Positions 4,484-33,353 of a stretch of DNA of 38,377 nucleotides are shown piece by piece; position 1 is the first letter of the stretch, and every line of letters begins with the position of its first letter. Below the pieces are notes generated by a model, which saw only the letters and a program-made list of their open reading frames with translations, was not told the DNA's origin and did not search any database. The position numbers were made by a program, and so were the translations under genes. The DNA is from a virus (taxonomy: Duplodnaviria; Heunggongvirae; Uroviricota; Caudoviricetes), in IMG/VR virus record IMGVR_UViG_2531839475_000013. One strand, written 5' to 3'.

Positions 4484-4587
4484 GTTAAATCTCCAGATAG
4501 TCGCAGCACCCGTTGCGCCGCATATCCGGTTATTCTATTACCTGAAAAACCACATATGGATAGATAACCCATAAATACGAACAGATA

Positions 4588-4602
4588 TTACCTTTCAGGT
4601 GA
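4588..4602. promoter_or_regulatory. operator-like palindrome TTACCTTTCAGGTGA
   Basis: Member of the repeated TTACC-N5-GGTAA family; upstream of the LexA-box promoter of the small antirepressor-like gene. Confidence 0.55.
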
Positions 4603-4641: not shown

Positions 4642-4657
4642 CTGTATAAATATACAG
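4642..4657. promoter_or_regulatory. LexA (SOS) box CTGTATAAATATACAG
   Basis: Perfect CTGT-N8-ACAG with AT-rich spacer inside a sigma70-like promoter (TTGCTA 4636..4641; TATTGC 4659..4664), about 20 bp upstream of the ATG at 4679. Confidence 0.75.
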
Positions 4658-4678: not shown

Positions 4679-4936
4679 ATGCAGCAGTATCACTATCCAC
4701 TGGAAGACGGATTTACCGAAAGGATTCACACGCCGGGAGGCGTCAGGTCACTGGTGGAGGGATCGCATTTGATGAAATTACTCCGGGATCTCGATAAGGA
4801 TGGATTTAATGTCGATGGCCCACTTGCCGAACTGACTGCACTGATTAACTACGTCACCAGCTCACAGATGTCTATGCGGGATCTGCAAACACATCTCGAC
4901 TATTGTGCCGAACAATTACGAAAACAAACCAGATAA
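4679..4936 (+). CDS. small antirepressor-like protein (standalone copy of the Bro-N antirepressor C-terminal module), LexA-controlled
   Basis: 85 aa from the ATG at 4679 (RBS GGAGAAG); sequence IHTPGGVRSLVEGSHLMKLLRDLDKDGFNVDGPLAELT...RDLQTHLDY aligns with the C-terminus of the downstream Bro-N protein (IHSPSGVLGLTENSLLMNLLNQLQEDGHDVSGAAAELT...RDIQTHAEY). Confidence 0.6.
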   Translation: MQQYHYPLEDGFTERIHTPGGVRSLVEGSHLMKLLRDLDKDGFNVDGPLAELTALINYVTSSQMSMRDLQTHLDYCAEQLRKQTR

Positions 4937-4967: not shown

Positions 4968-4982
4968 TTACCTTTGCGGTAA
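4968..4982. promoter_or_regulatory. operator-like palindrome TTACCTTTGCGGTAA inside a larger inverted repeat
   Basis: Perfect TTACC-N5-GGTAA, flanked by GGAGTGC (4955..4961) and GCACTCC (4992..4998). Confidence 0.5.
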
Positions 4983-5076
4983 ATTTACATCGCACTCCTC
5001 TTGTGCCATAGTAATCGGGCACTGGCAAAATCCAGTGCCGGGATTGGCGTCCCGAGTTACTACAGAGGCACATATG

Positions 5077-5096
5077 CCGCATAAGCGGTTTTTTTT
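5077..5096 (+). terminator. weak intrinsic terminator (CCGC-ATAA-GCGG then T8)
   Basis: Short GC stem followed by eight T; lies between the small antirepressor-like gene and the Bro-N gene. Confidence 0.35.
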
Positions 5097-5249
5097 ATGT
5101 GTAAAGCGCACCTATTCTATGGTGGGCTGTGTGGGGGCACCGAAAGGTGCGCCGGGTCCTTTGTAGCCGGTTACGCCAACCCTGCACAGTTCACCACCAA
5201 CCGATTGGCGTCGGTAGTGGTGATTAACCTAACTACAAAGGTGATCACT

Positions 5250-5936
5250 ATGACTGCTAACGTAACCCCATCTGTTTTTCATTTTGAATCAGAAGCAACC
5301 ATTCGAGCCATTGTTATTGATGGAAATCCTTGGTTTGTTGCCAAAGACGTTATTAAAGCTCTTCAACTGACAAACCCCACTATGTCAATAAAATCTCTTG
5401 ATGATGATGAAAGGGCTAAATTTAACTTAGGCCGTCAAGGCGAAACCAATATTATCAACGAGTCAGGCCTCTACACACTGATCCTCCGCTGCCGCGATGC
5501 AGTAACACCAGGCACTATCCCCTACCGCTTTCGCAAATGGGTTACAGGTGAGGTACTTCCTCAGATCCGCCGCACCGGAAGTTACATTAAAAACTCGCTC
5601 CCGCAAGAAGAACGCATAAAGATGGTTGCCGACCAGGTAGCCAACGCCACGGCGTCAGCAGTGATGCAGGCAATGAAGATAGAGAACAAAACCTACAGCG
5701 CCCCACTGAAGCCCGGCTACCGCAGCCTGATTCACTCGCCGTCTGGTGTTCTCGGCCTGACGGAGAACTCACTGCTGATGAATCTGCTGAACCAGTTACA
5801 GGAAGACGGGCACGACGTATCGGGCGCGGCGGCGGAGCTGACCACCATGTTCTGCTACATCGTCGGTGTGAGTAAATGCCTGCGTGATATCCAGACCCAC
5901 GCGGAATACATCAACGACAAAGCAGGGTTCTTCTGA
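5250..5936 (+). CDS. Bro-N domain antirepressor
   Basis: N-terminal region (VIDGNPWFVAKDVIKALQL...) matches the Bro-N/antirepressor DNA-binding domain; RBS AAAGGTGA; start chosen at the ATG at 5250 rather than the ORF-track start at 5097. Confidence 0.7.
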   Translation: MTANVTPSVFHFESEATIRAIVIDGNPWFVAKDVIKALQLTNPTMSIKSLDDDERAKFNLGRQGETNIINESGLYTLILRCRDAVTPGTIPYRFRKWVTGEVLPQIRRTGSYIKNSLPQEERIKMVADQVANATASAVMQAMKIENKTYSAPLKPGYRSLIHSPSGVLGLTENSLLMNLLNQLQEDGHDVSGAAAELTTMFCYIVGVSKCLRDIQTHAEYINDKAGFF

Positions 5937-5978: not shown

Positions 5979-6021
5979 TTGCAGACTGGGGGTGAATAGC
6001 GTACTATTACCTTAAAGGTAA
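5979..6021 (+). promoter_or_regulatory. sigma70-like promoter (TTGCAG-17-TACTAT) overlapped by operator TTACCTTAAAGGTAA (6007..6021)
   Basis: Hexamers with 17-bp spacing; perfect TTACC-N5-GGTAA palindrome over the -10/+1 region, immediately upstream of the accessory cassette. Confidence 0.5.
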
Positions 6022-6047
6022 ACCATGTGTTTACATGAGGAGGAGAT

Positions 6048-6257
6048 ATGGGATTTTGGTTCGCTCGTACAAAAACGAGGGATAATGCACCCAGCCCTCA
6101 GGCAAAAAATGCAGAAGTTCCGGCGTCAGCGCAGGTTAACAAGCGTGGTGGTGTGTATATCTCATCACAGCAAATTTCTGAGCTTCCTGAGGTTAAGGAG
6201 ATGCGTCGTCTCGCTGCTGCAATCGTTAAACAGGATCTTGCCACTGTAAGGAAATAG
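6048..6257 (+). CDS. small hypothetical protein, first gene of the accessory cassette
   Basis: 69 aa; strong RBS GAGGAGGAG; stop overlaps the GTG start of the next gene (TAGTG). Confidence 0.5.
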   Translation: MGFWFARTKTRDNAPSPQAKNAEVPASAQVNKRGGVYISSQQISELPEVKEMRRLAAAIVKQDLATVRK

Positions 6258-7120
6258 TGTTGTTAGCTCTTCTAATTATCCCCATTCTGGTTAGTGGTTA
6301 TATTATGATAACCGCTAACCAGTATCATTATTTCCGTTTATACCGACATGAAGGCCAGCTTCTTTATATGAAAGTTGCTGCATTAGGTACATATTGCCTT
6401 GTTGCTTCGGTAATAATTGCCGCATTTATAAAATATAAATATCCTGATTTTCACCTAGTTCACGATATGGTGGAAACTTTTAATGTAACGTCAAAACCAG
6501 AAACAGATAGAATTTACATGTGGCTACTTCTTCTGTCAGTCACATCAATTTGCTTCTCTTTGTGTTATGTATCTTTTGTTTGGCTAAAAGATCTTCTTTT
6601 AGGTTGTTTTTATAAACGTGATATTTATGACAAAATATCAGAGGCAATGAAAGCTAGGGTATTGCGAAAAACGTACTCCCAGGGTTCTTTAGATTTGCTA
6701 TTGCTTGATGCAATCGAATCAGATCCTAAGAAACCAATGTTAATTACTTTATCATCAAATAAAGTATACGTTGGAATAATAAATGGTTCTGGTGAGCCAA
6801 CGGAAAATCAAGGGCCACACCAACACATATCTTTTGTTCCTTTAATGTCAGGGTACAGAAACAAAGAAAATTTATCTGTTACATTTACAAACGCTTACCC
6901 AGGTGAAATCCAAATTAAGCGCAGTGCTGCGATAAAAGGGATAAGCAAAAAGAAAGTTCAAGGTCTAGAAATTATGGTATCTATAGACGAAATAAGTCAT
7001 ATATCATGGTTTGACTTTGAAGTATATAAGGCAACAAATAACAAAGTAGAAACAAAGGGTCATGTTGTTAATGTGACCAAAAATGGTCGCAACATATACT
7101 ACAGAAGTGGCAGAAAATAA
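6257..7120 (+). CDS. membrane protein, 3 N-terminal TM helices plus ~170-aa soluble domain, no recognised family
   Basis: 287 aa from a GTG start coupled to the upstream stop (alternative ATG at 6305); TM helices LLALLIIPILVSGYIMI, AALGTYCLVASVIIAAFI, IYMWLLLLSVTSICFSLCYVSFVWL; strongly AT-rich. Confidence 0.6.
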   Translation: MLLALLIIPILVSGYIMITANQYHYFRLYRHEGQLLYMKVAALGTYCLVASVIIAAFIKYKYPDFHLVHDMVETFNVTSKPETDRIYMWLLLLSVTSICFSLCYVSFVWLKDLLLGCFYKRDIYDKISEAMKARVLRKTYSQGSLDLLLLDAIESDPKKPMLITLSSNKVYVGIINGSGEPTENQGPHQHISFVPLMSGYRNKENLSVTFTNAYPGEIQIKRSAAIKGISKKKVQGLEIMVSIDEISHISWFDFEVYKATNNKVETKGHVVNVTKNGRNIYYRSGRK

Positions 7121-7145
7121 ATTTTACGCAGTTTAGGTGGCTTAT

Positions 7146-7649
7146 ATGGATAATACTATCTTAGGCGCATTGATAGGTGCAGTTATTGCTATAGTTTCCA
7201 CTTATATAAATGCAGGACAAGGATACAAAAACAGCATAAGATTAGAGCGACAAAAAATATTAAGGGATAAACGCGAGCAATTATTTATAAATTGTATACT
7301 TACTAAAAAAGTCATAGATTCAAGCACAATTACCATTCTCAATTTCGTAAAAAATGCCAGATACCACTCTGATAGTAAATTTGACGTATCAAGAGCGAAT
7401 CCGTTGCAAACGATGGAAATGCTAATAAACATATACCTTCCTGAGTATAAAAAAGACTTACAAGAACTCAATAATGCGTATCAAGAATTTCACAAATACT
7501 ACTCTCAATATACATGTGCACATACCTTCAAAAATATGCCTGATAATGAGAAGTCGAGGTTTATTGAGGAGGCTGATTTTTATGCAAAAAAGATATATGG
7601 CAAACTTAATGATATTAAGGACAAGATATCATTAAACTCAATAGTATAA
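7146..7649 (+). CDS. membrane-anchored protein, 1 N-terminal TM helix plus helical domain, no recognised family
   Basis: 167 aa from the ATG at 7146 (RBS AGGTGG); TM helix ILGALIGAVIAIVSTYI; AT-rich like its neighbour. Confidence 0.55.
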   Translation: MDNTILGALIGAVIAIVSTYINAGQGYKNSIRLERQKILRDKREQLFINCILTKKVIDSSTITILNFVKNARYHSDSKFDVSRANPLQTMEMLINIYLPEYKKDLQELNNAYQEFHKYYSQYTCAHTFKNMPDNEKSRFIEEADFYAKKIYGKLNDIKDKISLNSIV

Positions 7650-7751: not shown

Positions 7752-7763
7752 GTGACATGTCAC
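7752..7763. repeat. perfect 12-bp palindrome GTGACATGTCAC (copy 1 of 3)
   Basis: Identical 12-mer also at 25171..25182 and 27436..27447; abuts the terminator hairpin. Confidence 0.8.
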
Positions 7764-19786: not shown

Positions 19787-20224
19787 TTAACCAGTTACTT
19801 TTGAGCGGATCGGGTACGGCGTATTGGCATCAACATCCAGACTGATACCCGCAGTGAATTTGCCGGCCGTTAGTGGGCCAGTTGCGACGGAGTAGTTAAC
19901 ACGCAGATATCGCTGAACACCGGCTGGCACCTTTGCAGAAACAACTCGCTTACCTGCTGTCAGGGTGGCCTTTGCCAACGCACCACTATCATAAATAGTG
20001 GTCCAAGAGCTGTTATTCTCACTCGTCTGCAACTGGATGTTTACAGTTGCCTCACCACTTGCCGTGGCGGCTTCGTTAACCAGCCCCCAAAACTCAAGCG
20101 GGTAACCCACACCGATATCGCGACGGTTTCCATCAATTGGACCGAGATCGATTACGTCAGTAGAAGCCGCGGTATTCGTAACCGCCTGAGCTTCGGAGAA
20201 CATCAACAGTTTGTCGGTGATCAT
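19787..20224 (-). CDS. putative capsid decoration / minor capsid protein
   Basis: 145 aa, Thr/Ser/Ala-rich, immediately downstream of the major capsid gene. Confidence 0.4.
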   Translation of the reverse strand: MITDKLLMFSEAQAVTNTAASTDVIDLGPIDGNRRDIGVGYPLEFWGLVNEAATASGEATVNIQLQTSENNSSWTTIYDSGALAKATLTAGKRVVSAKVPAGVQRYLRVNYSVATGPLTAGKFTAGISLDVDANTPYPIRSKVTG

Positions 20225-24168: not shown

Positions 24169-24236
24169 ATCAATGACTCCGTACGCAATTAAATTATTAC
24201 CAATTTAACCACATATGATTTATTTATCGTAGATAG

Positions 24237-24273
24237 TTGACATTTAACGCACAAATTATTACCTTTCAGGTAA
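24237..24273 (+). promoter_or_regulatory. promoter (-35 TTGACA at 24237..24242) with operator TTACCTTTCAGGTAA (24259..24273)
   Basis: Consensus -35 hexamer; perfect TTACC-N5-GGTAA over the -10/+1 region; module resembles 4530..4605 and 30185..30275. Confidence 0.5.
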
Positions 24274-24594: not shown

Positions 24595-24671
24595 GTGGCA
24601 TTAGCTCAGCTGGACAGAGCAACCGCCTTCTAAGCGGTTGGTCGCAGGTTCGAATCCTGCATGCCACGCCA
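24595..24671 (+). tRNA. tRNA-Arg (anticodon UCU)
   Basis: Hand-folded cloverleaf: acceptor GTGGCAT/ATGCCAC, D-arm GCTC-AGCTGGACA-GAGC, anticodon stem ACCGC/GCGGT with loop CTTCTAA (anticodon TCT), T-arm GCAGG-TTCGAAT-CCTGC, discriminator G, encoded CCA. Confidence 0.9.
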
Positions 24672-24869: not shown

Positions 24870-25166
24870 ATGAGCGAAACATCAACAGTATCTTTCTCCA
24901 CTGCTTTGTCATCACTCAAAGATGGTAAGCGCATTGCACGTGCCGGATGGAATGGCAAAGGCATGTATCTGCAACTGGTTAAGCCACCGCAATCGGCCAC
25001 TCCGAACGATTGGCGATTTGACGTTACATGCGGTGACGAGTATACATTTGTACCTGGCGTTAAACTTCTACCGTGGATTGGGATGAAAACTGCTGACGGT
25101 TGCTTTGTACCGTGGCTGGCATCTCAAACCGATCTGCTATCTGATGATTGGATTGTAATTCAATAA
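24870..25166 (+). CDS. DUF2829-like small protein (Tad2-like candidate anti-defence sponge)
   Basis: 98 aa; N-terminal ALSSLKDGKRIARAGWNGKGMYLQLV and C-terminal ASQTDLLSDDWIVIQ match my recollection of the DUF2829 signature; RBS AAGGTGA. Not verified by HMM. Confidence 0.5.
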   Translation: MSETSTVSFSTALSSLKDGKRIARAGWNGKGMYLQLVKPPQSATPNDWRFDVTCGDEYTFVPGVKLLPWIGMKTADGCFVPWLASQTDLLSDDWIVIQ

Positions 25167-25170
25167 CACC

Positions 25171-25182
25171 GTGACATGTCAC
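25171..25182. repeat. perfect 12-bp palindrome GTGACATGTCAC (copy 2 of 3)
   Basis: Starts 5 nt after the stop of the DUF2829-like gene and 4 nt before the terminator hairpin. Confidence 0.8.
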
Positions 25183-25256: not shown

Positions 25257-26732
25257 TTAAGCATAGGGATCGTAATCTGTGATGGCCTTGCCTTGCTGGT
25301 TCTGCTGACCGGGAATTCGCAGACGCTTCGACACAGGGAACGCAAACGTCAGCAGTAGCGCATCGCCTTTACCAGGAGAACGCCCAAGTCGTTCTTTGAT
25401 ATCTTCCTTCGGTTCGATAACGATTTTACCGTCCACTCGAACTTTGTACTCTGCCGCCGACAGATCGTCCGCTGTTTCCTGGTCATCCAGCATGCCGCCG
25501 AGCCTCAGCCATGTCTTGCATGAGTTGAACATCTCCCCACGCTTGTTGAGCATCTGCGGGTCAGTAGACGCGCCACCGAACGGAACAAGTTGCCATGTAC
25601 GACCCCAGCCGTCACCGATTGACTTCAGACCAGTTCCGTAACCGAAGTCGATGAACACTGCGTCAGCCTGATACTGGTCTTCAAAGTCAGCGATACGCTT
25701 CGCCATAATCAGATCGTCGGTAGTCTTGTTGCCAGTCCACAGCACCTTACTGTGTAGCCCCTGCCGCAGGTATATCACCGCGTCATCAACGCCTGAATAT
25801 GCCGGGTCAACACCGATTATCACCGGAGCATGCGCCACCTGCGCAGCAGTTACCACCCGTTTCATTGCCTCGTCAGTAAGGCCGGTAGGGATAAACTGCA
25901 ATTCAGATGCATCAGGGAATATGCCGCGCACACGGATTTTAACGAAGTCGCTGTCTTCCCCGTAGTCATCAACCCATTTCTGCAACTGCTGTTTGTTAGT
26001 GCCTTCCACCGTTCGGCTGTCAATCTGCGCAGTTTTCCAGCGGTGTTTATATTTGCGGAAACATTCGCGAAAACGCCCGGTATTACGCGTCGGGTTTCCG
26101 AACGCCACCCAGATAATCTCAGTGTCTTCGTCCGTAAGCGCACCCTCAGCAACTTCCCACACCAGATCCGCAATGTTCGACGCTTCATCGAATACCAAGA
26201 TGATGCGTTTGCGCTCATTGTGTAATCCGGCGAATGCCTCAGTGTTGTGCTCAGACCAGGGGATTGCGTCAGCTCGCCACCGCTTGTCGTGCCCAGGGTC
26301 ATTGCCGTACATCGCGGTAGCGGTGCAGGTGAACCAGTCTTTCGTGATAGCAAGGTTCGACCACTTGATAATTTCAGGCCAGGTCTTCGTTCGTAGCTGG
26401 TTGTCGGTGTTGGCGGTCACCACGACCTTACAATCCTCGCAAGTGGACATGCCCCAGTTGATCAGCATTGAGATGAATGCGGATTTACCAATACCGTGAC
26501 CAGAAGCACGTGCCAGCATAAGCGGCTGATATCGCGTCTCTGGATTCTGCAGGTGATCACGTATCTCTCGGAACGCATCGGCCTGCCACTGACGTGGGCC
26601 GGTGGCATGTGCCAGTTCAGTACCCTCTTCCCCCCACGGGAAAGCATAGAGGGCATAGCCAAGCGGATCGTGAGTGAACCCTGCAATATCCTCGATCAAC
26701 TGCTCTTCAGGAGATAACGCTGTATCTTTCAC
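25257..26732 (-). CDS. terminase large subunit
   Basis: 491 aa; Walker A-like ARASGHGIGKS near the N-terminus, acidic nuclease-type C-terminal half; 4-nt overlap with TerS. Confidence 0.85.
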   Translation of the reverse strand: MKDTALSPEEQLIEDIAGFTHDPLGYALYAFPWGEEGTELAHATGPRQWQADAFREIRDHLQNPETRYQPLMLARASGHGIGKSAFISMLINWGMSTCEDCKVVVTANTDNQLRTKTWPEIIKWSNLAITKDWFTCTATAMYGNDPGHDKRWRADAIPWSEHNTEAFAGLHNERKRIILVFDEASNIADLVWEVAEGALTDEDTEIIWVAFGNPTRNTGRFRECFRKYKHRWKTAQIDSRTVEGTNKQQLQKWVDDYGEDSDFVKIRVRGIFPDASELQFIPTGLTDEAMKRVVTAAQVAHAPVIIGVDPAYSGVDDAVIYLRQGLHSKVLWTGNKTTDDLIMAKRIADFEDQYQADAVFIDFGYGTGLKSIGDGWGRTWQLVPFGGASTDPQMLNKRGEMFNSCKTWLRLGGMLDDQETADDLSAAEYKVRVDGKIVIEPKEDIKERLGRSPGKGDALLLTFAFPVSKRLRIPGQQNQQGKAITDYDPYA

Positions 26733-27325
26733 TGATTACCATCCTGACGTTCTTTGAGTCGCTTCCTGGCTGCTGCTATGCGATCAGCAATTGTCACATT
26801 CACATTAACATCCAGACGTTCTTTGAACGCGTTGACATCAACATGCTTACCAATCAGCTCAAGGTTCTTCACCTTGTCAGGCCATTTAATTTTTTTGAGG
26901 ATTGTCTCTATCGAATCCTCATTCATGTTCATGATGGTCGATGACAGATCAAAGCCGCTAAGCGTAGTGCGCCAGATTTTCGGCCACTCGCGAATTGGCT
27001 TAAGGCTTCCATCGTCGTTGAGGATATCAATCACGTCCATCTGGTCGATCTCCACCAGGCGCATGAGAACGTAATCAGCACTGACGCGCATTCGTTTGTT
27101 GCGCTCCTCCATCAACTCGGCAATCCGTTTTTGAATGCGTTCATCGCGCATCATTACACTGGCTTTAACTGCCGCTGTATTTGGGGAGAATCCTGCGTTA
27201 ATCGCTGCCTGAGTCTGGTTTTCAGGCGTTTTGATGTATGACTGGCAATAAGCCTCCTGCATTGCTGTGAGCGGCTTAAATTGCGTTGATTTGCGTTTAT
27301 AGGTTTTAGGTTCAGCAGGCATCAT
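26729..27325 (-). CDS. terminase small subunit
   Basis: Start placed at the ATG doublet at 27325 (MMPAEPK...); region LTAMQEAYCQSYIKTPENQTQAAINAGFSPNTA matches the small-terminase HTH motif. The ORF-track start at 27403 is a TTG giving an implausible TITTTVTITT leader. Confidence 0.7.
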   Translation of the reverse strand: MMPAEPKTYKRKSTQFKPLTAMQEAYCQSYIKTPENQTQAAINAGFSPNTAAVKASVMMRDERIQKRIAELMEERNKRMRVSADYVLMRLVEIDQMDVIDILNDDGSLKPIREWPKIWRTTLSGFDLSSTIMNMNEDSIETILKKIKWPDKVKNLELIGKHVDVNAFKERLDVNVNVTIADRIAAARKRLKERQDGNQ

Positions 27326-27368
27326 AACCACCGTGGTAATAGTTACCGTTGTGGTAATAGTACCATGC

Positions 27369-27394
27369 AAAATAAAGCCGCCATAGTTGGCGGC
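27369..27394 (-). terminator. intrinsic terminator upstream of TerS (GCCGCC-ATAGTT-GGCGGC, then TTTATTTT on minus strand)
   Basis: 6-bp GC stem followed on the minus strand by a T-run; sits between the last early gene and TerS (tR'-like position). Confidence 0.5.
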
Positions 27395-27435
27395 AGTATT
27401 CAAAACCCGTCAAATTCATCATGCATAATCTACTC

Positions 27436-27447
27436 GTGACATGTCAC
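27436..27447. repeat. perfect 12-bp palindrome GTGACATGTCAC (copy 3 of 3)
   Basis: Overlaps the stop codon of the zinc-ribbon gene, ~45 bp upstream (minus-strand sense) of the terminator before TerS. Confidence 0.8.
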
Positions 27448-27782
27448 ACTATTAATTTCGTTTCATGCCAGCCTTTAGTCACCCAGCATTGCGAGTCACC
27501 ATTACACGGGCATGAATTAACTGGAACTCTCTCGCCGCACTTACCGCAACGTTTTCTGCTGATCGATTTTATACGCCCGCGCACGCGTGCATCATCCTGG
27601 CGGATCAGTAACGCTACATACTCACCAAATTCGTAAGGCGCACGCCCGGGGCGACGCGTGGCACAGTTACGCTCCAGCATTTCAATTTCCTGAGCATCAA
27701 GCACAATTTCCAGCTTACGCACACCAGATGCAGCTTGTCTAGCTCTCTGAGCGGCTTTGCGCTCTGCTGCTGATTTAGCCAT
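27444..27782 (-). CDS. small basic protein with C-terminal Cys-rich zinc-ribbon-like motif (candidate late-gene regulator)
   Basis: 112 aa; Arg/Lys-rich N-terminus, C-terminal CGKCGERVPVNSCPCNGDSQC; last gene before the terminator/TerS junction. Confidence 0.35.
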   Translation of the reverse strand: MAKSAAERKAAQRARQAASGVRKLEIVLDAQEIEMLERNCATRRPGRAPYEFGEYVALLIRQDDARVRGRIKSISRKRCGKCGERVPVNSCPCNGDSQCWVTKGWHETKLIV

Positions 27783-29847: not shown

Positions 29848-30192
29848 TCAGAACTCTTCGATGTTCCAGCCACCACCTGCTTTCTTTGGTTTAACCGTTA
29901 CCCCGATGATTCGGAACGGATACTGATCTGCGGCGACTTTGGTTTTCACCCTGGCGTCGTCGGTCCAGAAACCTTTCACTTCGTGTAGTTCCATCTCGCC
30001 GGTGGCGAGCATCACAGCAAAATCGGGCGTATAGAACGTGTTGTCAGCTAACCGCAGCTTGATACCCTCGAATCGATACCAGGCGATTTCCCCTGCACGT
30101 TTACGCTGCTCAAGGTGCTGGCAATACGCAGATTCTGTTTTGTTCATTTGGCCTGTTTTGAGTCGACCAAGAGCCTGTATCTGTTTTCTCAT
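29848..30192 (-). CDS. DUF1064/VRR-NUC-like small phage protein (putative nuclease fold)
   Basis: 114 aa with YTPDFAVM...ELHEVKG pattern resembling small phage nuclease-fold proteins; the operator 30196..30210 sits right at its start/RBS. Confidence 0.4.
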   Translation of the reverse strand: MRKQIQALGRLKTGQMNKTESAYCQHLEQRKRAGEIAWYRFEGIKLRLADNTFYTPDFAVMLATGEMELHEVKGFWTDDARVKTKVAADQYPFRIIGVTVKPKKAGGGWNIEEF

Positions 30193-30195
30193 GAT

Positions 30196-30271
30196 TTACC
30201 CCTTAGGTAATTAAAAACCACATAAGACATAAAATCAATAGAGATTAGAACATTTTATTACCCTGCAGGTA
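30196..30271. promoter_or_regulatory. pair of perfect operator palindromes (TTACCCCTTAGGTAA 30196..30210; TTACCCTGCAGGTAA 30257..30271)
   Basis: Two perfect TTACC-N5-GGTAA sites 61 bp apart between the P-like gene stop and the next early gene start; intervening AACCACATA motif also seen in the other modules. Confidence 0.55.
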
Positions 30272-30309
30272 ATCATGTAGGCGTAAAAAAATGCGCTATC
30301 GCGCTGGTA

Positions 30310-32099: not shown

Positions 32100-32179
32100 G
32101 GTAAGCCCTGTTATTAGTATTGGGATTACGGTTATTTTGTGCTGACACAAAAAAAAGATCAACCATATTTGGTTTTTTA

Positions 32180-32194
32180 TTACCTTTGAGGTAC
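32180..32194. promoter_or_regulatory. operator-like palindrome TTACCTTTGAGGTAC
   Basis: One mismatch to TTACC-N5-GGTAA; preceded by ATTATT and an AACCATAT motif as at the other modules; upstream of the replication genes. Confidence 0.45.
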
Positions 32195-32200
32195 GAATAG

Positions 32201-32228
32201 ATATGAAAAGACCGCCGGATGGCGGTCT
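32201..32228 (-). terminator. intrinsic terminator downstream of the cro-like gene (AGACCGCC-GGAT-GGCGGTCT, then TTTTCATAT on minus strand)
   Basis: Perfect 8-bp stem with 4-nt loop, followed on the minus strand by a U-rich tract; tR1-like position. Confidence 0.6.
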
Positions 32229-32249: not shown

Positions 32250-32480
32250 TCATGAGTAGAAGAAGTATGCCAGTTCTGCTTTTGAGCGCAGCCATTGTCT
32301 TGATTTACAGGCTTTAAAAAGCCCATCCATCAATACCTTACCTGGCATTTTGCGCTTACCTGTTAAGTGAGTCTGGATATAGTGACTCGTCGTTCCGGCT
32401 TCCTGTGCGAAGGCTTCACGCTCATCCGGAGTAAGTGCAAGCCAGTGCTTTTTGAAATCGAAATGTCCGTTATTGCTCAT
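32250..32480 (-). CDS. Cro-like HTH regulator
   Basis: 76 aa, divergent from the repressor gene across an operator-rich 154-bp spacer; HTH-like segment FAQEAGTTSHYIQTHLTGKR. Confidence 0.55.
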   Translation of the reverse strand: MSNNGHFDFKKHWLALTPDEREAFAQEAGTTSHYIQTHLTGKRKMPGKVLMDGLFKACKSRQWLRSKAELAYFFYS

Positions 32481-32516: not shown

Positions 32517-32579
32517 TCACCTATAAGGTAACAAAAATCAAGGATAGTTACCCATGAGGTGCATTTACCTGTTGGGTAA
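32517..32579. promoter_or_regulatory. immunity-region operators: three TTACC-N5-GGTAA-type sites (32517..32531, 32548..32562, 32565..32579)
   Basis: TCACCTATAAGGTAA, TTACCCATGAGGTGC, TTACCTGTTGGGTAA in the spacer between the divergent cro-like and repressor genes. Confidence 0.6.
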
Positions 32580-32634
32580 TATTGCTTTAAATTGAATCAT
32601 CTTCTGATTCAGATATGAGGCGATTTTCCAGAAA

Positions 32635-33219
32635 ATGAAAAGTATCCAGGACGTCCGCAGGCAAAATCTCAACGACTTGATCGACCGTGAATTCAATGGT
32701 GTTCAGACGCGGATGGCTGAAAAACTTGGAACTCAGGCAAATCTGGTAAACCGCTGGGCTCTTGGCAAGAAGGTTATCGGCGACCAGGTTGCGCGAAAAA
32801 TTGAAGCTGCCGCCAATAAACCCCGTAACTGGCTTGATATCGATCGCTCGCTTTCTCAGGAAGGTTTTCAGCCTGTCGGACCAAGCGACATTGGTCAACT
32901 GGCGGCTCACAACCTGGAACGCTGGATGAGCGAAAGCCGCGACCTTTCAACGCAGGGAAAACTTCACCGCGCATCCGGCGTCGCCCAGGTGACAATCAGC
33001 CGCCTGTTAAACAATGAGGTCAGCGTTTCCATTTCCACCCTGGAGAATGTTGCATCCGCATTCGGGCGTCACGGCTATGAATTACTGATTCACCCGCACG
33101 ACCCTGCGACTATCAACTATGACCGCTCGCGCTACGCTTTGTTACCCGAAACCGAGAAAGCAAAGATCGAAAGTTACATTGAATTTGTCATCAACCAGAA
33201 CGAAAAAAACAAACAATAA
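32635..33219 (+). CDS. prophage repressor, two HTH domains, no S24 peptidase domain
   Basis: 194 aa; two HTH-like segments (TRMAEKLGTQANLVNRWALGKK and ASGVAQVTISRLLNNEVSVS); no Ala-Gly/Ser-Lys autocleavage module visible; little or no RBS, so possibly leaderless. Confidence 0.6.
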   Translation: MKSIQDVRRQNLNDLIDREFNGVQTRMAEKLGTQANLVNRWALGKKVIGDQVARKIEAAANKPRNWLDIDRSLSQEGFQPVGPSDIGQLAAHNLERWMSESRDLSTQGKLHRASGVAQVTISRLLNNEVSVSISTLENVASAFGRHGYELLIHPHDPATINYDRSRYALLPETEKAKIESYIEFVINQNEKNKQ

Positions 33220-33239: not shown

Positions 33240-33265
33240 AAGCCGCCTTCTGGCGGCTTTTTTAT
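33240..33265 (+). terminator. intrinsic terminator after the repressor gene (AAGCCGCC-TTCT-GGCGGCTT then T-run)
   Basis: 8-bp stem, 4-nt loop, six T; 20 nt after the repressor stop. Confidence 0.7.
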
Positions 33266-33276
33266 TGCCTGTTCGA

Positions 33277-33353
33277 TTACCTAACGGGTAATTTTTTTAA
33301 CTCATATCTATTGACATCAAACCATATACGCATAATTATTACCTCAACGGTAA
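33277..33353 (+). promoter_or_regulatory. early promoter (-35 TTGACA 33311..33316) bracketed by two perfect operators (33277..33291 and 33339..33353)
   Basis: TTACCTAACGGGTAA and TTACCTCAACGGTAA; the proximal one overlaps the -10/+1 of a promoter driving the recombination operon. Confidence 0.55.

Follow-up and report, generated by a model that had tools for sequence, protein, structure and literature searches.

Binding sites for the lysogeny repressor of Uetakevirus are already annotated in the type phage epsilon15. Its RefSeq record (NC_004775.2) carries seven features labelled "protein_bind: repressor, lysogeny", and 7/7 of them read ATTACC-N5-GGTAAT. They lie before terS, in the divergent upstream region of gp3, in the gap that separates gp19 from the tail-fibre gene, and past the replication genes, with three further annotated sites near the end of the repressor gene. 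The epsilon15 genome contains 11 perfect copies of the motif, and two copies between rep and cro are among those left unannotated. Here we analysed the palindrome TTACC-N5-GGTAA in the IMG/VR virus record IMGVR_UViG_2531839475_000013, a stretch of 38,377 bp referred to below as the window. The motif and its dispersed distribution are already known from the epsilon15 annotation, and no new kind of system is opened here. A full-text literature search for the motif in several notations gave no match, and its known status rests on the epsilon15 GenBank features and citing papers. The details that may be under-described are an exact 62-bp pairing of sites, the register between operator and -10 hexamer, the proposed direct control of terS through its promoter, the likewise proposed regulation of the Tad2-like and isrK/C4 units, and a set of second motifs.

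The second system closely related to the window is that of SPC32H, in which, as Kim and Ryu reportedly found in 2013, the repressor Rep is not cleaved in the SOS response and is inactivated by the antirepressor Ant, whose promoter is repressed by LexA. Structures from this Rep-Ant switch are deposited as PDB 5D50 and 5D4Z. SPC32H Rep is described as built of three domains, for DNA binding at the N-terminus, dimerisation in the middle and tetramerisation at the C-terminus (PMC9986798). It is reported to sit as a tetramer on palindromic sites and to repress lytic genes, each pair of DNA-binding domains coming from different dimers, and tetrameric Ant is reported to disassemble Rep and take it off DNA (PMC9638917, PMC9986798). 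The tetramerisation domain is described as having the TetDloop fold of DNA-looping regulators, with the pairs of dimerisation domains ~100 Å apart, and the same 2023 paper states that the structural repression mechanism "has not been extensively characterized" (PMC9986798).

The window represents an E. coli prophage of the genus Uetakevirus, similar to phiV10 and epsilon15. Its 24-34 kb part is 96-97% identical to the Uetakevirus Escherichia phages vB_EcoP_PAS61, phiv142-3, TL-2011b, ZX5 and phiV10, and the gene order is that of epsilon15 reversed (lysis, tailspike, virion, terminase, nin-like block, replication, cro, rep, recombination, integrase). With epsilon15 it shares genus, gene order, motif and motif positions, while its Rep is 43% identical to epsilon15 gp38 and it has additional sites before an isrK/C4/Bro-N module and before an accessory cassette. 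With SPC32H it shares homologous Rep and Ant, a LexA box before ant and the same palindrome at the same places, and it differs by a second, Bro-N-type antirepressor module that SPC32H lacks. The traits that define operators of the epsilon15/SPC32H type are thus found together in the window, namely the site sequence, a Rep gene beside an operator cluster divergent from cro, conserved positions, and an Ant arm with a predicted LexA control.

We propose with good confidence that the 15-bp palindrome is the operator of Rep (32635..33219), the main repressor of this Uetakevirus prophage, and that it is present at most of the promoters. We assign the site to Rep because the epsilon15 annotation, positional orthology, Rep homology, the sites between rep and cro, and the overlap with promoters all agree.

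Number and location of the palindrome

An exact search found nine perfect copies in the window, starting at 4968, 6007, 24259, 27343, 30196, 30258, 32565, 33277 and 33339, compared with a mean of 0.01 and a maximum of 1 in dinucleotide-preserving shuffles of the window. Four more copies have one mismatch (4588, 27325, 32180 and 32517) and one two-mismatch copy, at 32548, is credible, so that the credible operator set comprises 14 sites, spread over about nine separate loci. According to a gene map curated using the list of open reading frames (ORFs) and annotated relatives, 7.2% of the window is non-coding, and this small share holds all 14 (32548 as well as the 13 sites that have one mismatch or none). 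The remaining two-mismatch matches lie within genes (26/26). When the same half-sites were searched at N0-N4 and N6-N11, each spacing gave 12-37 two-mismatch matches and no perfect copy in the window. Because the alternative spacings yield similar counts, we rejected the 26 genic matches as operators and regarded them as background.

In an unbiased count of all hyphenated palindromes with 5+5 arms, TTACC-N5-GGTAA was the most frequent in the window, with nine copies as opposed to four for the runner-up. No perfect copy was found in phage lambda (48.5 kb) or in 50 kb of E. coli chromosome. The consensus over 70 sites is 17 bp long and reads A-TTACC-(five A/T-rich positions)-GGTAA-T, with A or T at the central base in 94%. 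We also considered a hairpin or terminator as the function of the palindrome, and rejected it by inference from its 5-bp arms, its 5-nt loop and the missing T-run.

A first-pass annotation, made from the sequence of the window, had pointed out this motif. The eight perfect copies that it listed are real, with the correction that 30257..30271 is actually 30258..30272, and it overlooked both the perfect copy 27343..27357 and its one-mismatch neighbour 27325..27339. It had announced at least 13 copies while listing 12; our credible set has 14. The mismatch search bore out its imperfect copies at 4588, 32180 and 32517 (one mismatch each) and 32548 (two). Its view that chance was a very unlikely origin agrees with the shuffles, the intergenic enrichment that it suggested looking for is seen at 14/14 credible sites, and a motif just as common within genes or in unrelated genomes, which would have spoken against it, was not observed.

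Operators between rep and cro and at promoters

The 154-bp spacer that separates cro (- strand, start 32480) from rep (start 32635) holds three operators. The cro-proximal one, 32517..32531 (one mismatch), lies in the spacer of the leftward cro promoter, for which TTGATT-17-GAATAT is a conserved candidate and TTGTTA-17-TATTAT an alternative. The middle one, 32548..32562 (two mismatches), is 17 bp from 32565 and 31 bp from 32517. The rep-proximal one, 32565..32579, is perfect, and its right half overlaps a conserved TAATAT (32577..32582), a candidate -10 hexamer of rep. The same three-operator layout (17 and 30/31 bp) is present in seven enterobacterial genomes, and a Serratia prophage also has three copies at this place. 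These three operators form the putative lysis/lysogeny switch.

The other eleven copies are found at or next to promoters elsewhere. In total, most sites overlap or abut promoter elements of the sigma70 type, and at least six are tied to promoter hexamers. Five promoters share a fixed register in which the -10 hexamer and the operator have one T in common, the last of the former and the first of the latter; this register is conserved across genomes, and in it Rep would cover about -7 to +8. The first belongs to the recombination operon (+ strand, from 33373 onward), where TTGACA(33311)-17-AATTAT(33334) leads into the perfect operator 33339..33353, the orthologue of which is annotated in epsilon15 at 32554-32570. 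The second serves the DUF1064 gene and the block after the replication genes on the - strand: TTGATT(30238..30233)-17-TTTAAT(30215..30210) is followed by the promoter-proximal perfect operator 30196..30210 and then by the ATG at 30192 of the DUF1064 gene. The third is the conserved extended -10 promoter TGGTACTAT (27365..27357, - strand) of terS and the terminase operon, with the perfect operator 27343..27357, which follows a terminator (27394..27377) and corresponds to an annotated repressor-binding site of epsilon15 (12-27). The fourth, TTGCAG(5979)-17-TACTAT(6002) on the + strand, precedes the accessory cassette 6025..7649 (+) and has the perfect operator 6007..6021, with an orthologue in phiv142-3. 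The fifth is a candidate promoter, TTGCAA(4940)-17-TATATT(4963) on the + strand, before the isrK/C4/Bro-N antirepressor module; its perfect operator 4968..4982, between ant and this module, has orthologues in phiV10, phiv142-3, Tyrion and BUCT711. The same operator also abuts the -35 hexamer of a candidate isrK promoter, TTTACA(4984)-17-CATAGT(5007), the predicted +1 of which (5019) coincides with the first base of the isrK-family small RNA (sRNA).

The perfect operator 24259..24273 is placed differently. It lies 16 nt downstream of a conserved TTGACA (24237) and covers the likely -10 of a + strand promoter directed toward the genes for tRNA-Arg (24595..24671) and a Tad2-like protein (24870..25166). 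Both TTGACA boxes named in the first-pass annotation, at 24237 and 33311, are present, and the fixed -10 register holds only at the latter. We rejected the -7/+8 register at 24237, since the operator is just 16 nt from TTGACA and the -10 itself is covered. Site 24259 is 62 bp from a half-site inside a second motif upstream of gp3, and its epsilon15 orthologue (2931-2947) is annotated as repressor-binding.

The units with sites at their promoters are therefore the recombination operon, the post-replication block, the terminase operon, the isrK/C4/Bro-N module, the accessory cassette and the tRNA/Tad2-like unit. One repressor with dispersed operators acting on many units, as the first-pass annotation had concluded, is supported by this map. 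The network is not confined to the non-structural units that it stressed, since late units also carry sites: a pair at the terS promoter, and sites upstream of the late regions of gp3 (head) and the tailspike. The terminase operon was missing from its list of controlled units.

At terS, the second operator is located 18 bp downstream of the first. This one-mismatch copy, 27325..27339, lies two nt upstream of the terS ATG (27322, - strand) and contains the likely ribosome-binding site. The phiV10 RefSeq record (NC_007804.2, terS at 41-715) and the TTG-start ORF 26729-27403 (-) of the window both place the two operators within coding sequence. The true start of terS is probably the ATG at 27322, and the annotated phiV10 start too far upstream, because the alignment with epsilon15, Tyrion and phiv142-3 indicates so.

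Two further sites complete the set. The one-mismatch copy 4588..4602, TTACCTTTCAGGTGA, lies where the tailspike gene (start 4483, -) and the small ant gene diverge. Its orthologues are perfect in phiv142-3, epsilon15, SPC32H, Tyrion and BUCT711, and that of epsilon15 (19895-19911) is annotated as repressor-binding. The one-mismatch copy 32180..32194 is situated just downstream of the cro terminator (32228..32209, -), before the replication genes, where it adjoins a near-palindrome, AACCATATTTGGTT (32161..32174); the site is kept in phiV10, Tyrion and BUCT711.

Conservation among related genomes

The sites of the window are positional orthologues of the epsilon15 sites, and the same layout is found in SPC32H, phiV10, Tyrion (Enterobacter) and BUCT711 (Klebsiella). 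None of the phiV10-type records that we inspected has an operator annotation. In epsilon15, gp19, which flanks one of the annotated sites, is labelled only as hypothetical; its SPC32H counterpart is ant. Spacings are conserved as well: 62 bp in the pairs at two promoters, 18 bp before terS, and 17 plus 30/31 bp in the triple between rep and cro. Alignments of five or six genomes showed that half-sites, -35 and -10 hexamers are kept while spacers and flanks diverge, and the only invariant parts among copies and genomes are the two 5-bp half-sites and the 5-bp spacing between them.

More divergent prophages gave a similar picture. TTACC-N5-GGTAA was the top palindrome both in an E. coli prophage with a 59%-identical Rep, which has the same layout over the part compared, and in a Serratia prophage with a 54%-identical Rep, in which the spacing of close pairs differs. 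Each of the two has 7 copies in 20 kb.

All relatives carry a one-mismatch variant, TTACC-N5-GGTAT, ~45 nt upstream of the integrase gene in a strongly conserved block, at 26870 in phiV10 and at 26882, 26960, 28568, 12620 and 35733 in the coordinates of the other relatives. The window ends within int, so any such copy would fall outside it.

Paired sites and sites after terminators

At the recombination and post-replication promoters, a second perfect operator is located exactly 62 bp upstream of the promoter-proximal one. At the former, a promoter of the leftward-early type, the upstream operator is 33277..33291, 18 nt past the rep terminator (33240..33259), with an annotated orthologue in epsilon15 (32616-32632). 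At the latter, it is 30258..30272, after the T-run that closes the replication operon, and the epsilon15 orthologue (35906-35922) is again annotated as repressor-binding. Across 80 related IMG/VR loci, a distance of exactly 62 bp is seen in 149/152 close pairs. This distance corresponds to ~5.9 helical turns, which puts the paired sites on the same face of the DNA, and it is plausible that Rep bound to such a pair would bend or loop the DNA tightly around the promoter.

The arrangement also permits another reading, to which we give about one chance in four and which overlaps with promoter occlusion by Rep. Only the sites between rep and cro would then be classical operators, and the dispersed copies, bound by Rep, would serve chiefly as roadblocks or insulators after terminators, or as anchors for bridging, instead of occluding the promoter directly. 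A terminator or a terminator tail indeed precedes four sites or pairs (33277, 32180, 27343/27325 and 30258) by ~10-20 nt, the 62-bp distance is strictly kept, and the reported TetDloop fold of the SPC32H Rep tetramer, with its widely separated domain pairs, would suit a bridging protein (PMC9986798). However, five sites stand in the exact -10 register, conserved in divergent genomes, which promoter occlusion predicts and a roadblock does not need.

The repressor and its possible competitors

Rep is encoded at 32635..33219 on the + strand, has 194 aa, and matches SPC32H Rep (PDB 5d50_A) over its full length with an E value of 4e-42. It is 100% identical to the repressors of phiV10, ZX5 and others, and 42-43% identical to those of epsilon15 and SPC32H. 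The sequence NLVNRW in the N-terminal domain is invariant over Reps that are 43-100% identical and nearly so in 86 database homologues. It is presumably the recognition helix, and its invariance fits that of the half-site. Pfam gave only matches of the HTH type and no peptidase domain; one of them, HTH_3, covers residues 106-147, and this second HTH-like region falls where the middle dimerisation domain of SPC32H Rep is placed (PMC9986798). The name two-HTH repressor, used in the first-pass annotation, is adequate as a description of the sequence, but a DNA-binding role is described for SPC32H Rep only in the case of the N-terminal HTH.

The gene divergent from rep (32250..32480, - strand) encodes a Cro-like regulator of 76 aa, which matches PHROG 35 "transcriptional repressor" with an E value of 3e-12 and is orthologous in position to epsilon15 gp39. 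We consider it improbable that the dispersed sites are bound mainly by this Cro-like protein, or by the gp49-like regulator (27444..27782), during lytic growth. Both proteins match transcription-regulator families in PHROG, and Cro-type proteins commonly share operators with their repressor. Covariation also offers no help: the protein search returned 86 Rep homologues down to 52% identity, of which 86/86 have an (N/S)RW-type motif at the recognition position, and the IMG/VR scan returned identical Reps only, so that the specificity is invariant among the Reps found and does not separate Rep from the other two proteins. On the other hand, the curators of epsilon15 assigned the sites to the repressor, and the presumed recognition motif of Rep is as invariant as the half-site. 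SPC32H Rep is reported to bind palindromes as a tetramer (PMC9638917). Furthermore, overexpression of the repressor of vB_EcoP_ZX5, a near-identical phage whose Rep is identical to that of the window, removed free phage and cut endolysin and holin transcripts by >99.9% (PMC9782041), a shutdown of late transcripts that argues for Rep.

Least of all, and with a negligible probability in our view, the repeats might bind no protein and be copies of promoters or module boundaries spread by recombination, or the product of chance; several copies do stand at mosaic module boundaries and share promoter hexamers, but spacer and flanks differ between copies and genomes, which is the signature of a dimer site and not of duplicated DNA, and chance is excluded by the shuffle counts and the spacing control.

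The assignment of the palindrome to Rep also has to be weighed against several observations in the window and in the records. Four sites (4588, 32180, 30258 and 33277) overlap no recognisable -10 or -35 hexamer, and their role is one that we infer, although 4588 and 32180 are both conserved. Site 4968 is flanked by two candidate promoters. The window also has no counterpart of the site found in relatives upstream of the lysis cassette. The repressor sites in epsilon15 may have been annotated by bioinformatics only. Finally, neither IMG/VR nor the protein search contained a Rep variant that combines a different presumed recognition motif with a different palindrome.

Comparison with other repressor networks

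P1, a plasmid prophage that has its own late activator (Lpa), uses an asymmetric 17-mer as its operator. Its C1 repressor is not known to be related to Rep. The site in the window is symmetric (5-N5-5), and the Pfam and PHROG matches of Rep include no C1-type family. The likeness to the P1 C1 network is in logic only: a single repressor acts through many dispersed operators and controls an antirepressor operon with a C4-type antisense RNA (PMC8201110). The immI operon of P1 consists of the c4 antisense RNA, icd and ant, and in the window an RNA of the C4 family lies downstream of operator 4968.

Phage lambda likewise has three operators between the divergent repressor and cro genes, and its leftward early promoter has a second cluster. 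In the lambda record, OL and OR are the only places with annotated CI operators, as opposed to ~9 loci in the window. CI belongs to the LexA family and undergoes cleavage upon induction, whereas Rep has no peptidase domain in Pfam and its induction would proceed via an antirepressor; neither an S24 self-cleavage domain nor a confinement of operators to OL and OR is seen here.

The stoperators of mycobacteriophages L5 and L1 are orientation-dependent and are often located inside operons. The L5/L1 repressor, too, is reported to bind many sites genome-wide (PMC1934351). Stoperators are asymmetric, in contrast to the sites in the window, which are palindromic and intergenic in 14/14 cases and tied to promoters, with at least six at promoter hexamers.

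Antirepressor modules and the tRNA/Tad2-like unit

The small antirepressor Ant (4679..4936, + strand) matches SPC32H Ant (PDB 5d50_E) with an E value of 4.5e-46 and ~87% identity. Its gene is preceded by a perfect LexA box, CTGTATAAATATACAG (4642..4657, +), which is conserved across the genus, and every sequence component of the SPC32H scheme (Rep, Cro, Ant and LexA box) is thus present in the window. The Rep site of the small ant gene (4588) lies upstream of the LexA box, and for this reason LexA is probably the primary control of ant. The partners have diverged unevenly from SPC32H, Ant being ~87% and Rep ~42% identical, including the C-terminal part of Rep that Ant reportedly binds.

The second module, downstream of operator 4968, comprises an isrK-like sRNA (5019..5095, +; Rfam 74.2 bits), a C4-like antisense RNA (5115..5201, +; Rfam 79.5 bits), both above the gathering threshold, and the gene (+; ends at 5936 and probably starts at 5250) for a Bro-N protein whose C-terminus resembles Ant and which has Bro-N and anti-repressor PHROG matches. 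A 279-aa ORF at 5097-5936 (+) is probably over-extended at its 5' end, with ATG 5250 as the likely start. PHROG 450 matches both small Ant and the C-terminal region of the Bro-N protein, so that the prophage carries two modules of the Ant type, one with a LexA box and the other with sRNAs downstream of a Rep operator. The isrK/C4/Bro-N layout recalls the isrK-orf45-anrP locus of Gifsy-1 (PMC4825925) and the repressor-controlled immI operon of P1 (PMC8201110).

The tRNA-Arg(TCT) gene at 24595..24671 was found by ARAGORN on the + strand, opposite to the structural genes. ARAGORN places it on this strand in both the window and phiv142-3, while the phiv142-3 record annotates the other strand. It is followed by the gene for a Thoeris anti-defence 2-like protein (Tad2-like, formerly DUF2829) at 24870..25166 (+). 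Two terminator-like hairpins stand between the two genes, and the Tad2-like gene may therefore have its own promoter.

Second motifs

An asymmetric late box, CCATATGTGGTT, is partly palindromic (AACCA-N4-TGGTT) and occurs at 4537-4560, 24196-24219, 30210-30228, 1850-1875 and 32155-32180, all on the - strand. These copies are upstream of the tailspike, gp3 (head), post-replication, lysis and post-cro units and on the strand of rightward/late transcription. The block with the late box at gp3 is invariant in seven genomes. At gp3 and the tailspike, the box forms a hybrid with a Rep half-site, TGGTT-N5-GGTAAT, and a full Rep operator is located 50-62 bp upstream. We rejected AACCA-N4-TGGTT as a second symmetric operator, as it has only 2 perfect copies and, at up to two mismatches, 32 matches versus 18 expected; conservation across genomes favours the asymmetric box instead.

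A 12-bp palindrome, GTGACATGTCAC, is present three times (7752-7763, 25171-25182 and 27436-27447), each copy adjoining a terminator at the 3' end of a unit. One of them shares bases with the stop codon of the gene for the gp49-like regulator and lies ~80 bp upstream of the terS promoter. The palindrome is found after terL, after the last virion gene and at the end of gp49 in most of the Uetakevirus genomes examined, and it is absent from the Serratia prophage.

A model for silencing and release

Under the assignment of the palindrome to Rep, the repressor would occupy all 14 sites in the lysogen and block RNA polymerase at every unit. The upstream partners and the sites after terminators would add cooperative bridging by the tetramer, a roadblock against read-through, or both. 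By homology to the SPC32H scheme, DNA damage would remove LexA from its box at 4642..4657, and Ant would then be made and strip Rep tetramers from DNA. All Rep-controlled promoters would be freed together.

A more far-reaching version of this model, which we put forward only tentatively, is a circuit with a single tier, in which one Ant-sensitive Rep tetramer directly holds every class of promoter, including the late terS, anti-defence and accessory ones. Pairs of DNA-binding domains would in this case contact the transcription start and the partner site 62 bp upstream in a tight promoter loop, and at the late promoters of gp3 and the tailspike the second contact would be made with the hybrid half-site TGGTT-N5-GGTAAT in the late box.

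Implications

The prophage is of a common type: at least 80% of its 10-kb regulatory region is present in 267 of 5,426 complete E. coli genomes. Phages of the phiV10 type are reported to serve as reporter phages for E. coli O157:H7 (PMC11854483). The map corrects gene starts, for example that of terS in the phiV10 record, and supplies a compact set of Rep-controlled promoters for engineering. For the biology of the prophage, it offers an explanation of how replication, recombination, packaging, antirepressor and anti-defence (Tad2-like) genes would be silenced, and jointly released, by one antirepressor-sensitive protein. If a single Rep tier does hold all of these promoters, mutual immunity at the level of the operator might extend to all members of the genus, because neither the operator nor the presumed recognition motif varies among Reps with as little as 43% identity.

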